Part shown: piece after piece, positions 7,072 to 18,055 of the stretch
Layout: every line of letters starts with the position of its first letter
Position numbering within the stretch: position 1 is the stretch's first letter
Virus record (IMG/VR): IMGVR_UViG_3300028591_003415
Span: 1-31,464 of that record
Direction: 5' to 3' (one strand)
Origin: a virus
DNA: 31,464 nucleotides
The notes under the pieces: generated by a model
Seen by the model: the letters and a program-made list of their open reading frames with translations, nothing else
The model's database searches: none
What the model was told of the DNA's origin: nothing
Program-made: the position numbers and the translations under genes

Positions 7072-7110
7072 AAAAAACTGACCTCATGCCCAGTTGAAGT
7101 CAGCTTTTTT
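7072..7110. terminator. Hairpin terminator flanked by an A-run and a T-run. It overlaps the stop codon of the RuvC-like gene.
   Basis: AAAAAA CTGAC ctcatgcccagttgaa GTCAG CTTTTTT. Confidence 0.45.
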
Positions 7111-7575
7111 CTTTATATTTTGTTTTACAACAGAGGCTCCGATACAAATTGCATCACTTTCATCCTATGAGACTTTTTTCCCATAAGTTCCCAATACCCA
7201 AGCCTATGCGGCCTTTTTTTGCTCTGGACGAGTTCTTCCTTTTATCCCTAACTATGATTTCCAAGTATTTGAACTAACTATATGATAACCATATTGATGT
7301 GATGCTAAGTATTCCTATGTTACACCAAAAATTTCAGCAAGAACTTTGAATGTCTAAACATTATTTATCTAAGACTACATTTGTATATCTTCAAAAGCAA
7401 CTTCGTCAATATCATTATCTTCAATTAGTTTTTCAATATGCTTACGATAATCAACTAAACGCTCTCCAATATCATCTGATTTTAGAGTAAATGTTCCACT
7501 ATCTATTAACTAATCGTCTTCAAATATAGACCAACCGCTTATACGGCTTGCCTAATCTAAAGCGAGTAATCTCAT
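7084..7575 (-). CDS. ruvC: RuvC-like Holliday-junction resolvase, 163 aa, with 10 in-frame TAGs.
   Basis: Product: MRLLALDQASRISGWSIFEDDQLIDSGTF...DESDAICIGASV. This has the RuvC fold signature, a catalytic Asp near the N-terminus and a DxxDA motif near the C-terminus. It was translated codon by codon through 10 TAGs to TGA (rc 7084-7086). The ORF track misses this gene completely. Confidence 0.65.
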
Positions 7576-8039
7576 GGAGCAACGCCCATCCAATTTTCAG
7601 CAAAAGTATCAGTGAGATTAGTGGAACCAAACCCCCCGGCTCTAATACCATCCGCTATATCATCATCAGTCAAATTATACTTTTCAATTACACCTTGCCC
7701 GATGCGCTCACCTTTTCTTAACAATACAGTATCTTTGATAGCGATAATGGCAAACATAATATGTCCTTCATTTTCTTCGTTATTATAATAATCACTATCA
7801 ATAATACCAATGCCATTAGCGAGTATTACACCATACTTTTTAGGAGCAGAACTACGAAGACTTAAACGCAAATCATAACCTTCATCAATCTACATTTTTA
7901 TACCAGTAGGCACATAAGTAATTTCCCAAGGATGGCAGTAAGTATCTTCTGCTACTGTAAAGTCATAACCTGCACTACCCTTGGTTGCGCGAGTAGGCAA
8001 AACTGCATCAGGATAAGCACTTACACGCTCAAACTTCAT
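7572..8039 (-). CDS. dut: dUTPase, 155 aa, with 1 in-frame TAG.
   Basis: Track ORFs 7890..8090 and 7572..7871 share one frame and join through TAG (rc 7881-7883, IKMQIDEGYDL). dUTPase motifs are present: AGYDF, RSS, GIIDSDYYN, RIAQ-like and GGFGSTN. GGAGG lies 9 nt before ATG (rc 8037-8039). The stop TGA overlaps the ruvC ATG. Confidence 0.85.
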
Positions 8040-8274
8040 GATACTCAGCCTCCATTTGACACTCTGGCTCTTTCTCATCTGTAAAGACAAGTTTATACTT
8101 TACAAGTTGATATTGGTCAACAACTTCACGCTTTACTTTTATATCCTTAGTAGTATAACTAAAAGATACTAAATCAAAATTACTATCATTCTTCAATTCT
8201 TCATGAAGTTCTTCAACATCAGCAACAGTATGAACACGAACAGTATTCACAGAACTAATTAAATATTTTATCAT
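8029..8274 (-). CDS. Protein of unknown function, 81 aa.
   Basis: Clean ORF. Start overlaps the upstream stop as TAATG. Ends in TGA. Confidence 0.5.
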   Translation of the reverse strand: MIKYLISSVNTVRVHTVADVEELHEELKNDSNFDLVSFSYTTKDIKVKREVVDQYQLVKYKLVFTDEKEPECQMEAEYHEV

Positions 8275-8531
8275 TAATGTAATACCTCAATTTCTATATG
8301 TTTAAGACCATACTTAGTCTGACTATCATTACGAATTTGGTCAGCAACTGTATCGGCAAGAGTACCCTTTAACGCAATTTTATCATAACCACCTTTATTA
8401 TATTCAGCAGCCATAAAAGCACTAATTGAATCCAATGACCCTCTAAAAATAATCTCTGTATCTCCTGGTGTTAATTTAACAACTTCTTGATTCATAATAA
8501 ATGGGTCAATATAACAAAACATTATTGGCAT
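8274..8531 (-). CDS. Protein of unknown function, about 85 aa.
   Basis: Start at MPIMFCY..., ATG rc 8529-8531. GGGGG lies 8 nt upstream. It overlaps the stop of the upstream gene. Confidence 0.45.
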   Translation of the reverse strand: MPIMFCYIDPFIMNQEVVKLTPGDTEIIFRGSLDSISAFMAAEYNKGGYDKIALKGTLADTVADQIRNDSQTKYGLKHIEIEVLH

Positions 8532-15730: not shown

Positions 15731-16985
15731 ACGTGAATTAGCATATGTAGTTTTAATTGATAATATTGAGCCTATTATTGGTTCAGATAATTGTGAATGC
15801 GCTATTGTCGGCGGATGGCATATTATGGTAAGAAAGGGTCAGTTTAACATTGGAGACCCCGCCATTTATTTTGAAATTGATAGTAAGGTTCCTTCTACTA
15901 ATTCTGCTTTTGCTTTCCTTGAAAAGCGTAATTATAAAGTAAAAACTCAAAAATTTACTTTTGGTGGTAAAGGTAATTTTATCTCTCAGGGATTGCTTAT
16001 GCATCCTTCAGATTTTGGTTGGGAAATCCAAGTTGATGGTTCTATTTGGATTCCAGGCGATGGAGACCATGGTCGTCATTATACAGATGATGAATCTCGT
16101 TTCCTTACTAAAATTCTCGGTGTAACCTATGCCGATGACGAAGATAATCAGCGTAAAGCCAAGACTATTGACCCTAATGCTAAATATCTTTCTATGAAAG
16201 CACGCCATAAGAAATTTTTTAGTAATAAGTTTGTAAAGAGAATGTGGAAATATCCTTGGTTTAGAAAACTTTGTTTCTTCTTTATGGGAAAGAAAAAAGA
16301 TAAACCTCGTGGATTCCCTACTAAATTTCCTTTCGTACATAAAAGTGACGAAGAAAGAATTGAAAATTGTTCATGGTATTTAAATGACCAGGAGCATACT
16401 TGGATTAAAACTGTCAAAATTGATGGTACTTCAAGTTTGTATGTTCTTGAAAGACTGCCAAGAGATAAAAGAGAATATTATGTTTGTAGTAGAAATGTGC
16501 GGCAAGCAGATGAAAAACAGGAGACCTATCATGGTGAAAATGTGTATTGGTCTGTTGAGTTTAAGTATCATATCCGGGATTTCCTTGAGGCAATGTTAAA
16601 AGAGCATCCCGATTGGTCTTATGTTGCTATTCAAGGTGAAACTGCCGGCGTTGGTGAGACTGGCACTAAAATTCAGGGAGACCCTCATGAATTTGGAGAA
16701 CTTCGTTTTTTTGCTTATAATTTTATTGATTCTGTAAAAGGCCGTTGGAATTCTATTGAAGCCAGAAATTTACTTGCTAAATACGGTATTGAATTTGTAC
16801 CTATCGTAGATGAAAATTATATTCTGCCTAAAGATTTAAATACATTTAAACTTGAGGCGGATGGCGATTGTGAAGCACCAGGTGCGCACGGGCTAAGAGA
16901 AGGCTATGTTTATCGCAGAACTGATGATTGCAATATTTCATTTAAAAATGTAAGCAATAAATATTTGCTTAAAGAAGGAAAATAA
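15711..16985 (+). CDS. ATP-dependent RNA ligase-like nucleotidyltransferase (Rnl family), 424 aa.
   Basis: Motif I is VKIDGTSSLYVL (KxDG). Motif V-like EGYVYRR. An N-terminal domain of about 230 aa precedes the nucleotidyltransferase domain, as in Rnl5-type ligases. Confidence 0.6.
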   Translation: MLNSKNERELAYVVLIDNIEPIIGSDNCECAIVGGWHIMVRKGQFNIGDPAIYFEIDSKVPSTNSAFAFLEKRNYKVKTQKFTFGGKGNFISQGLLMHPSDFGWEIQVDGSIWIPGDGDHGRHYTDDESRFLTKILGVTYADDEDNQRKAKTIDPNAKYLSMKARHKKFFSNKFVKRMWKYPWFRKLCFFFMGKKKDKPRGFPTKFPFVHKSDEERIENCSWYLNDQEHTWIKTVKIDGTSSLYVLERLPRDKREYYVCSRNVRQADEKQETYHGENVYWSVEFKYHIRDFLEAMLKEHPDWSYVAIQGETAGVGETGTKIQGDPHEFGELRFFAYNFIDSVKGRWNSIEARNLLAKYGIEFVPIVDENYILPKDLNTFKLEADGDCEAPGAHGLREGYVYRRTDDCNISFKNVSNKYLLKEGK

Positions 16986-17023
16986 AAAATTTGGACATTA
17001 ATAATTAATTATTTATTTTTAAT

Positions 17024-17067
17024 TTACAGATAAAATAGATGGAAAAAACCACCTATTTTATCTGTAA
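17024..17067 (+). other. Long hairpin with an 18-19 bp stem and an AAAAAA loop. There is no U-tract after it.
   Basis: TTACAGATAAAATAGATGG aaaaaa CCACCTATTTTATCTGTAA. Confidence 0.4.
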
Positions 17068-17086
17068 AAAGAAAAGAGGTATAATA

Positions 17087-18055
17087 ATGTCTAAAATAAA
17101 TGATTTAACCGGATAGCGTTTTGGAAAGTTATTGGTATTAGAAAGAGCAGAAAATGATAAATTTGGTAAAACAAGATGGCTATGCCAATGTGATTGTGGT
17201 AATTAGAAAATAATTACTGGTGCTTCTTTATCTCGTGGATTAACTACATCTTGTGGTTGCAATAGAAAAGAAAAAATATAGGCATATAATGAATAGCATA
17301 CTTAGGATGAAACTGGACATAAGTATGGGCGATTAACAGTTTTATATAGAGATTTAAATCCTCAAAATCAAAAAGATGGTAGAGCCATGTGGGTATGCCA
17401 ATGTGAATGCGGAAAAACTATTACTGTAATGGGTAAATCATTACGGTCTGGGCATACTTAGTCTTGTGGATGCTTATCAAAAGAAACTTCCTCAAAAATT
17501 GGATAGAAAACTGGCCCTGTTAATGGCGGATAGATGTTTGTAGATTTGACCAGATAGCGTTTTGGAAAATTATTAGTATTAAAAAGAGTATAGAATACAA
17601 AATAGGGATTGGCTTAGTGGCTATGCAAATGTGATTGTGGTAACACTACAATAGTAAGAGGCTCATCTTTACGAAATGGTGGAACTACTTCTTGTGGATG
17701 TATTAAAAGTAAAGGAGAAACTAAAGTAGGAACATTATTAATTAATAATAATATTTCATTTTAGTCTCAATATAATATATTAATAAACAATAAATATTAT
17801 TATTTTGATTTTGGTGTTTTATCATTAAATAATACTGTTAAATATTTTATTGAATTTGATGGCAAACAACATTTTAAACCAAATTTATTTTTTGGTGGAG
17901 AAAATGAATTACAAAAGACACAAGAAAGAGATTAGTTAAAAAATCAATGGTGCAAAGATAATAATATACCATTAATCCGTATCCCGTACTGGCATCTACA
18001 AGATTTATGTATAGAAGATTTATTGTTAGAAACAAGTGACTTTATAGTAAAATAA
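17087..18055 (+). CDS. Homing-endonuclease-like protein of 322 aa. Three zinc-finger-like repeats are followed by a Vsr/DUF559-like restriction-endonuclease-fold domain. 15 in-frame TAGs.
   Basis: AAAGAGG SD lies before ATG 17087. Codon-by-codon translation to TAA 18053-18055 finds no TAA or TGA. The repeats read LTGQRFGKLLVLERAE...RWLCQCDCGN...SLRSGHTQSCGC, three times. C-terminus is YYFDFGV...IEFDGKQHF...NIPLIRIPYW. The ORF track misses the gene completely. Confidence 0.65.

Follow-up and report, generated by a model that had tools for sequence, protein, structure and literature searches.

We examined a 31,464-nt stretch of viral DNA (positions 1 to 31,464 of the IMG/VR record IMGVR_UViG_3300028591_003415; hereafter the window) in which in-frame TAG codons crowd some genes and are missing from others. 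The window has a G+C (GC) content of 34%. Many of its conserved genes are broken under the standard bacterial code, and long open reading frames (ORFs) emerge once only TAA and TGA stop translation: coverage by ORFs of at least 100 amino acids (aa) rises from 0.62 under code 11 to 0.79 with TAG read through. With TAA and TGA as the only stops, we curated 39 genes comprising 8804 codons. Their names were checked with Pfam and PHROGs, and Pfam supports all eight gene names used in a first-pass annotation that had been made from the sequence alone. TAG occurs in 13 of the 39 genes, 59 times in total; the other 26 genes are TAG-free. The TAG-bearing genes include the following, with counts of TAG and of the glutamine (Gln) codons CAA and CAG.

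7084-7575, minus strand: RuvC-like Holliday-junction resolvase; 9 TAG, 4 CAA and 0 CAG in 163 codons, first TAG at codon 8.
14966-15730, plus strand: free-standing GIY-YIG endonuclease with HTH domains; 5 TAG, 9 CAA and 0 CAG in 254 codons; GC 0.23.
17087-18055, plus strand: gene resembling homing endonucleases; three Cys-rich repeats and, at the C-terminus, a DUF2726 domain (restriction-endonuclease-like) according to Pfam; 14 TAG, 10 CAA and 0 CAG in 322 codons.
30088-31386, plus strand: PhoH2 (PIN and PhoH ATPase; Pfam PIN_4 and PhoH); 8 TAG, 7 CAA and 0 CAG in 424-432 codons, depending on the start codon.
3732-6077, minus strand: radical-SAM/SPASM maturase with an intein (Hint and LAGLIDADG, approximately residues 290-612) according to Pfam; 7 TAG.
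2865-3701, minus strand: Cys-rich repeat protein of 278 aa, directly downstream of the maturase; 4 TAG, 6 CAA and 0 CAG.
6487-6939, minus strand: protein without an assigned function; 3 TAG and 3 CAA, with a family TAG fraction of 0.55-0.57 in relatives.

The TAG-free genes include the following.

11449-13896, plus strand: homologue of the major vault protein (MVP), directly behind a conserved promoter; 0 TAG, 3 CAA and 22 CAG; GC 0.40.
27816-29207, plus strand: flotillin/SPFH protein (Pfam Band_7 and Flot); 0 TAG, 0 CAA and 25 CAG; GC 0.45.
22554-23705, plus strand: distant adenylosuccinate-synthetase-like (PurA-like) gene, behind a conserved promoter (Pfam Adenylsucc_synt, E=2e-18); 0 TAG, 0 CAA and 11 CAG.
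15711-16985, plus strand: RNA ligase (Rnl; Pfam RNA_ligase, PHA02142 OB domain), between two TAG-rich endonuclease genes; 0 TAG.
14021-14608, plus strand: HNH endonuclease (Pfam HNH_3); 0 TAG, with only 4 Gln codons and thus uninformative on class.
21568-22458: vWA-like gene; TAG-free and CAG-biased.

For comparison we collected 107 loci of relatives (~2 Mb), namely the MVP, PhoH2 and RuvC neighbourhoods in IMG/VR contigs of up to 402 kb and in one ENA contig. Genes of the relatives were called with a codon-log-odds caller and then clustered into families; the family analysis covers 107 sequences (the window and L001-L106), of which 63 are recoded. The best IMG/VR match to the window MVP has 81% identity; by PhoH2, large siphoviruses of Bacillus, Geobacillus and Alicyclobacillus come nearest among cultured phages (35-41% identity). 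A megablast search of the window against GenBank phages returned no close match, only a single 71-bp match. The phage is a large uncultivated tailed phage, probably of 130-240 kb, and SLH, CW_7 and SPOR domains in the lysins of its relatives hint at a Firmicutes host.

TAG encodes glutamine in this phage. All 59 in-frame interruptions in the 13 genes are TAG, with no TAA and no TGA among them. TAG accounts for only 20% of off-frame stop triplets, so that interruptions by TAG alone have a probability of ~1e-41; this excludes pseudogene decay. Pfam domain matches in the window genes extend at full length across the TAGs. In an alignment of 120 homologues, the PhoH columns at three window TAG sites hold Gln in 120, 117 and 118 sequences, and in 45 PhoH2 orthologues from recoded relatives TAG, CAA and CAG are mixed at invariant Gln columns (for example 7, 26 and 11). 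Standard-code copies of the recoded endonucleases, 71-73% identical to them, have CAA or CAG at about half of the TAG sites and mostly Lys and other exchangeable residues at the rest. Recoded orthologues hold roughly as much Gln overall as standard-code ones, so TAG mostly substitutes for CAA and CAG.

The TAG load is spread over the window genes far more unevenly than chance would have it. Heterogeneity over the 39 genes gives a chi2 of 183; 20,000 multinomial simulations average 38 and never exceed 90, and they yield 12 TAG-free genes on average and 21 at most where 26 are observed. Normalised to Gln-type codons, the chi2 is 97 versus a simulated maximum of 64. In the TAG-free genes TAG is found off frame at 12-16 per 1000 codons and in frame not at all; together with the exclusive use of TAG in the interruptions, this shows an effect at the coding level. 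The two gene populations described in the first-pass annotation are thus real: the unevenness goes far beyond chance, and TAG-free status is conserved per family. Recounting returned the same zeros for MVP (0/815), flotillin (0/463), PurA-like (0/383) and Rnl (0/424) and the same TAG numbers for GIY-YIG (5/254) and PhoH2 (8/424-432), but gave 9 rather than 10 TAGs in RuvC and 14 rather than 15 in the 17087 endonuclease. The density that had been called extreme is so for single genes, TAG making up 58-69% of Gln-type codons in the 17087 endonuclease and RuvC, but a third of the curated genes (33%) carrying TAG is nothing unusual among recoded phages. The skew noted at 7084-18055 likewise exists, but it is not confined there and spans the entire window. 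The wording of the contrast as selfish versus structural genes has to be given up: tail proteins and endolysins carry TAG in relatives, and MVP and flotillin need not be virion proteins. The true contrast lies between promoter-proximal replication, RNA-repair and host-manipulation genes and genes for lysis, tail, resolvase and homing-endonuclease functions. Our results support dependence on amber suppression as the best explanation of this split.

The two classes are conserved across relatives. In the recoded relatives, 18 families have less than 2% TAG, which amounts to 20 TAG over 3383 Gln-type codons. To this group belong GyrB, GyrA, ATP-dependent DNA ligase, Thg1, two RNA ligases, flotillin and another Band 7 protein, as well as MVP, metallophosphatases, NAD synthase, aminotransferase and DUF2828. 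A further 28 families lie at 6-50% and none between 2% and 5%, making the distribution nearly bimodal. The heterogeneity chi2 over families is 1437, a value inflated by near-identical strains; after dereplication at 90% identity it is 739 (df 48). Within the low class, MVP orthologues are all TAG-free and use CAG almost exclusively, and no TAG is found among 212 Gln-type codons of the flotillin family, drawn from 8 lineages, or among 71 of the Rnl family. The replication genes follow suit, with 2/601 in GyrB, 12/923 in GyrA and 2/183 in the ATP-dependent DNA ligase.

At the top of the range stand a family combining a transmembrane (TM) segment with GIY-YIG (TAG fraction 0.50, effectively ~5 lineages), a LAGLIDADG endonuclease (0.44) and RuvC (0.40-0.46; 0.31-0.46 for the RuvC orthologues of recoded relatives). 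The DUF2726 endonuclease family has a fraction of 0.38, the family of intein-less maturase orthologues 0.34, and the GIY-YIG family 0.32-0.34, with TAG in all 9 dereplicated lineages. Among lysis and tail families of the relatives, a holin-like TM protein reaches 0.28-0.30, a tail protein 0.24-0.25 and endolysins 0.16-0.24; PhoH2 stands at 0.15-0.22. Recoding is consistently heaviest in the homing endonucleases, RuvC and lysis genes. Recoding of lysis and virion-structural genes is seen in the relatives only; the window holds no lysis or capsid gene. The TAG fraction of individual window genes correlates with that of their orthologues in relatives (Spearman 0.79, P=6e-6). The same layout recurs in a closer relative, L107, whose PhoH2 is 86% identical: the 18 genes upstream of PhoH2 contain a single TAG between them, PhoH2 itself has 7 and the following 812-aa endolysin 12, while GyrB and GyrA have none.

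TAG-free status is also tied to a promoter. A ~40-nt element, TTGAyT-N17-(TG)nTATAAT-NNW-TATAGAAA, occurs ten times in the window, always on the plus strand, between 9132 and 29371. Its motif TATAAT-NNW-TATAGWA is present in 10 copies where 0.17 are expected, on the plus strand only (9155-29371). Judged by its motifs, the element is a strong promoter of the canonical sigma-A/sigma-70 type whose -10 box is extended, and a terminator hairpin precedes many of the copies.

9132-9171, plus strand: promoter copy 1; TTGAyT, 17 nt, TATAAT, NNW, TATAGAAA.
11384-11423, plus strand: promoter copy 2, upstream of MVP.
13951-13990, plus strand: promoter copy 3, upstream of the HNH gene, with a terminator hairpin before it (13910-13942).
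19292-19331, plus strand: promoter copy 4.
19817-19856, plus strand: promoter copy 5; TTGACA-17-TATAAT, 12/12 positions.
20745-20784, plus strand: promoter copy 6.
22493-22532, plus strand: promoter copy 7, upstream of the PurA-like gene.
23708-23747, plus strand: promoter copy 8, one mismatch.
25036-25075, plus strand: promoter copy 9.
29332-29371, plus strand: promoter copy 10, one mismatch.

The first gene after each of the ten copies is without TAG, as had been claimed for genes directly behind the conserved promoters. The GIY-YIG gene, named earlier as the one exception, does bear TAG and has a copy nearby, but that copy is degenerate or truncated and lacks a -35 box. In the recoded relatives, TAG is found in 4 of 57 genes directly downstream of the motif, compared with 400 of 1063 other genes. 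An 8-mer containing the -35 box, TTGATTTT, lies upstream of 23 of 157 TAG-free genes and of none of 122 genes with at least two TAGs.

The same promoter stands before a suppressor tRNA gene in a relative. Genes for tRNA(CUA) are present in the closest relatives sampled: L089 and L001 have two each, L090 and L081 also encode tRNA(CUA). In L001 the promoter motif lies at 3881, 32 nt before the tRNA(CUA) gene at 3913. By analogy, a suppressor would be expected in this phage's own genome.

Comparison of Gln codon usage (CAA, CAG and TAG) gene by gene, a check suggested in the first-pass annotation, revealed three regimes in the window. In the first, that of four large genes close behind promoters (MVP, flotillin, PurA-like and the vWA-like one at 21568), TAG is absent, GC is 0.36-0.45 and codons are strongly biased (CAG 93%, AAG 60%, TTG 75%). 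The other TAG-free genes are AT-rich with an ordinary bias (67 CAA, 30 CAG, 0 TAG). The 13 TAG-bearing genes make up the third regime, with 59 TAG, 73 CAA and 12 CAG. We modelled neutral evolution among three Gln states, with CAG at the centre and a single transition separating it from CAA and from TAG alike, and took the AT bias from GAA:GAG in the same genes. The model predicts 0.45 CAA, 0.45 TAG and 0.11 CAG; observed in the TAG-bearing window genes are 0.51, 0.41 and 0.08. By this fit, TAG behaves as a near-neutral synonym of CAA wherever it is allowed; elsewhere it is missing entirely. A special process behind the near-loss of CAG in the TAG-bearing genes was considered and rejected, since the neutral model predicts the loss and Gln content equals that of standard-code orthologues.

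The genome thus holds two gene classes, each conserved among relatives; the TAG-free class is linked to one promoter, and relatives encode suppressor tRNAs. The reading that we consider fairly probable is that of a partly recoded phage with TAG as Gln, in which the TAG-free class is under purifying selection for translation in the standard code and the other class depends on suppression and is presumably expressed late. Host RNA polymerase would transcribe the TAG-free genes and the suppressor tRNA from the consensus promoters, and host ribosomes would translate the TAG-free set under the standard code before tRNA(CUA) builds up. Once it has accumulated, full-length protein would be made from the TAG-containing genes, presumably late. 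Purifying selection would keep promoter-linked, replication, RNA-repair and host-manipulation genes (MVP, flotillin, Rnl, phosphatases, PurA-like) without in-frame TAG. The permissive class would comprise RuvC, the homing endonucleases, the radical-SAM maturase with its neighbours and PhoH2, and in relatives the endolysins, holin-like and tail proteins; here, under AT-biased mutation, TAG would drift to about the frequency of CAA, with CAG nearly gone. Both the order of expression and the host's genetic code are what we infer in this scheme.

Several observations weigh against this reading. The window contains no tRNA gene in its 31,464 nt, so that the phage's own suppressor is not seen there. 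Some TAG-bearing units too are preceded by sigma-70-like hexamers, such as the minus-strand TTGACA-17-TATACT at 6441-6413; promoter class is therefore no clean separator of the two sets. Enrichment of 8-mers upstream of TAG-bearing genes yielded nothing, and hence no late-promoter motif. The designation of genes as early is suggested solely by promoter type and gene function. Permissive families form a gradient from 6 to 50% rather than a single state, and the dUTPase, RNase H and PhoH2 families carry some TAG though they look metabolic. Family TAG fraction falls with GC (rho -0.65) and with CAG use (rho -0.67), indicating that expression level or codon selection contributes. Finally, the relatives are represented by the neighbourhoods of three genes rather than by whole genomes, and many of the loci are close strains.

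A possible but tentative refinement of the suppression-dependent reading, not a replacement for it, is that a high TAG load in DNA-cleaving and lytic genes is positively selected as an adaptive translation lock, which would keep leakage ahead of the code switch negligible and whose strength would scale with the number of TAGs. The top TAG fractions do belong to four unrelated endonuclease families, RuvC, a holin-like protein and endolysins, and the first TAG comes early (codon 8 in RuvC, 10 in the 17087 endonuclease, 19 in GIY-YIG). The TM and GIY-YIG family, at 0.50, is slightly above the neutral expectation of ~0.42, and such a lock was proposed for lysis genes and an intron endonuclease in the part of the study by Borges et al. 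(10.1101/2021.08.26.457843) that deals with them. Against selection of this kind, the TAG:CAA:CAG ratios agree with a neutral equilibrium of mutation, orthologues do not keep their TAGs at the same positions, and the family at 0.50 amounts to about five lineages. The same genes are also the most AT-rich and show the least codon bias, and relaxed selection would therefore rank them in the same order.

The split could alternatively reflect translation efficiency without timing: suppression would be slow or leaky throughout infection, high-output genes (MVP, flotillin, gyrase) would purge TAG and weakly selected genes, homing endonucleases for instance, would accumulate it by AT-biased drift. As expected from this, TAG fraction falls not only with GC and CAG share but also with GAG share (rho -0.58), the largest TAG-free genes are those with the strong CAG, AAG and TTG bias, and the permissive families grade into one another up to genes that sit at about the neutral TAG ceiling. 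However, low-GC, CAA-preferring families still lack TAG: the aminotransferase has 37 CAA, 0 CAG and 0 TAG, and the phosphatases 0 TAG in 60-78 Gln-type codons, so codon bias alone is insufficient. The gap in family TAG fraction between 2% and 5% also speaks against this account, as do the TAG-free status that tracks one promoter type, found before the suppressor tRNA in L001 as well, and the TAGs of tail proteins and endolysins, which are needed in quantity. Efficiency contributes, yet it cannot explain the unbiased TAG-free families or TAG in tail and lysis genes, and as the whole explanation we consider it unlikely.

A difference in history is very improbable as the cause of the split. It would have TAG-free genes arrive recently from standard-code hosts or phages, and TAG-rich ones, especially homing endonucleases, reside for long only among recoded phages. 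The GC of the TAG-free MVP, flotillin and PurA-like genes (0.36-0.45, versus 0.23-0.33 in their neighbours) would fit, and in some recoded phages endonuclease copies are closer than the backbone: the window GIY-YIG is 74% identical to the copy in L068, whereas PhoH of the same two phages is 56% identical. This lends some support to the suggestion in the first-pass annotation that endonucleases move among recoded phages; in L003, the Rnl gene has no flanking endonuclease genes. TAG is no fixed mark of origin, though. Endonuclease homologues occur in phages of both code types, with 0 TAG in standard-code relatives versus 1-7 in recoded ones at 71-73% identity, meaning that TAG was gained or lost in place. 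For the TAG-free genes a separate history, also raised earlier, is not needed: within the clade, orthologues of MVP, flotillin, gyrase and Rnl that share 50-80% identity all lack TAG and have kept the same composition, which indicates long residence and selection. The data already suggest that these genes descended inside the phage clade along with its backbone. TAG turnover at Gln sites is fast, and an old resident free of constraint would have gained TAG. Weakest of all is an artefact, in which the ORFs interrupted by TAG would be pseudogenes in decay, from a phage with the standard code, or wrong gene calls: homing endonuclease genes often decay and the window lacks a suppressor tRNA, but this is already refuted by the exclusive use of TAG in 59 of 59 interruptions, the full-length Pfam matches across TAGs, the TAGs at invariant Gln positions and the tRNA(CUA) of relatives.

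Among the TAG-bearing genes of the window, RuvC matches Pfam PF02075 over residues 4-145 with 26.5 bits (cut-off 22.2), and the GIY-YIG gene matches PF01541 with 42.3 bits (cut-off 22.6, E=1e-10). The sequence of the latter reads GYIYKITNKINGKVYIG(TAG)T, with one TAG within YIG-Q-T. The PHROG matches of the 17087 endonuclease (374, 559, 9084 and 7140) are HNH, homing or intron-encoded endonucleases; a GAGG ribosome-binding site favours the start at 17087 over a possible alternative, the ATG at 17039. Positions 17026-17066, between the Rnl stop and the ribosome-binding site of this endonuclease, hold a 13-bp inverted repeat, ACAGATAAAATAG ... CTATTTTATCTGT, which might act as a terminator or, on top of the TAGs, as a structural check on translation of the endonuclease. 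In the window PhoH2 the first TAG appears only at codon 173. A TAG-free N-terminal part is not a rule for this protein: the N-terminal third has 10 TAG in 126 Gln-type codons over 45 orthologues.

In the maturase, 5 TAGs lie in the N-extein, 2 in the intein and none in the C-extein; the LAGLIDADG segment of the intein has just 2 TAG in 8 Gln-type codons. The maturase orthologue in L089 (9771-11114, 447 aa) is without the intein. In the neighbouring protein at 2865-3701, the C-terminal half is dense in Cys-x3-Cys repeats, and the L089 orthologue has 3 TAG. From its repeats and position, this protein may be a substrate of the radical-SAM maturase.

Among the TAG-free genes, MVP matches Pfam MVP_shoulder (E=4e-20) and Vault_3 (E=5e-9), and it aligns over residues 315-696 with rat and human MVP in the PDB (E=1e-18). 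Homologues of MVP are also found in huge phages of 462-735 kb (LR756500, LR756501). A vault-like assembly may form in infected bacteria, as this homology would suggest. Within the flotillin and MVP genes, both of high GC, run long antisense ORFs of 416 aa (28050-29300, minus strand of the window) and 856 aa (6788-9358, minus strand of L004). They are shadows of strong codon bias, not genes, and misled a longest-ORF caller. The PurA-like protein matches PurA in the PDB weakly (E ~1e-4) and only over the N-terminal 150 residues; with regard to an identity as PurZ (2-aminoadenine DNA), the PDB search yields these weak PurA matches only.

The phage has a TAG-free RNA-repair set consisting of Rnl, an AAA_33 kinase and metallophosphatases. 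Further members in relatives are a DUF2828/DUF7788 protein, Thg1 and a protein resembling RlaP (L089 4214-5713, L001 2428-3264). MVP, flotillin, the vWA-like, DUF2828/DUF7788, Thg1 and RlaP-like proteins and the RNA-repair genes share the absence of TAG, a near-exclusive use of CAG and a position behind the strong promoter. Two small TAG-free membrane proteins, at 10991-11371 and 19355-19738, are similar in length and in their C-termini (…YELQSIDGDTYIVRDKG and …YNLISRDGEIFVLQEK) and look like paralogues; the one at 19355-19738 lies directly behind a conserved promoter. A YpsA/SLOG-family (YAcAr) protein with a predicted nucleotide-binding domain is encoded at 9593-9970, inside a TAG-free block.

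Not all relatives appear to share one code. In a few of them (L011, L086), ORF coverage is higher with TGA read through (0.92-0.94) than with TAG read through (0.88-0.89), and L102 encodes a tRNA with anticodon UCA at 11879-11950 on the minus strand, called SeC by ARAGORN. The clade may include standard-code, TAG-recoded and TGA-recoded members.

Delayed translation of an endonuclease has a precedent in phage T4, where translation of I-TevI is restricted to late infection: RNA structure hides the ribosome-binding site, and late promoters transcribe the gene. As for I-TevI, the endonuclease genes described here lie in or next to presumed early or middle genes and, in our proposal, would be transcribed early and translated late. 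Unlike that of I-TevI, the proposed block consists of in-frame amber codons that need a suppressor tRNA, and not of RNA structure.

Closer parallels come from recoded phages. In the part of their study that treats code change, Borges et al. (10.1101/2021.08.26.457843) report in-frame stops in 26-71% of genes depending on clade, describe suppressor tRNAs encoded by the phages and propose that the code switch times late translation. In their TGA-recoded Agate phages, three families are recoded preferentially, and among them is the endonuclease of a group I intron that sits in an early gene. A model of suppressor-dependent late translation and a preferentially recoded intron endonuclease are therefore established there. 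The window resembles their code-15 gut phages (Lak and crAss-like phages, Garnet, Amethyst and Topaz) in using TAG as Gln, in partial recoding and in replication genes compatible with the standard code; recoded lysis and structural genes and suppressor tRNAs are further common features, here seen in relatives. Set against what that part of the study describes, the phage belongs to a different clade. Several unrelated free-standing endonuclease families, RuvC and the radical-SAM maturase lead its TAG ranking, the exclusion of TAG is tied to one explicit promoter consensus, and CAG is almost replaced by TAG in permissive genes. Another case is phAss-1 and the proposed Phassvirus group (PMC10607447), uncultivated gut phages of ~135 kb in which 28% of ORFs carry TAG, those for TerL, portal and tail among them, with two or three tRNA-Sup(CUA) genes and with holin and dUTPase recoded in some members; that report is without an analysis of per-family TAG density or promoters. 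The likeness lies in partial TAG recoding, and the window, beyond the short match mentioned above, has no nucleotide-level match to any GenBank phage.

The window is an unusually clean case from an undescribed clade. Its additions to the published model are modest: generality over several endonuclease families, RuvC and the radical-SAM maturase, an explicit link to a promoter and a neutral-equilibrium benchmark. It offers an independent and near all-or-none case for the idea that recoding separates early and late translation, with 20/3383 in the one class versus 16-50% in the main late and mobile families. Because the promoter consensus is defined and a suppressor tRNA lies behind the same promoter in a relative, the model is testable. 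The benchmark applies to claims of adaptive recoding density: what mutational equilibrium predicts is TAG at roughly the frequency of CAA, with CAG almost gone. In practice, standard gene callers break a third of the genes in such contigs. A more speculative extension, which we regard as doubtful, is a selected, graded amber lock on enzymes whose premature synthesis would harm the DNA of phage or host or the envelope (four unrelated homing-endonuclease families, RuvC, holin and endolysin). It would be timed by the suppressor tRNA, expressed from the early promoter that also serves the TAG-free genes, and as a side effect the difference in code would filter endonuclease traffic between recoded and standard-code phages. 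If this were true, an endonuclease gene crossing the code boundary would have to gain or shed TAGs, as may be reflected in copies with 7 and 0 TAG at 73% identity.

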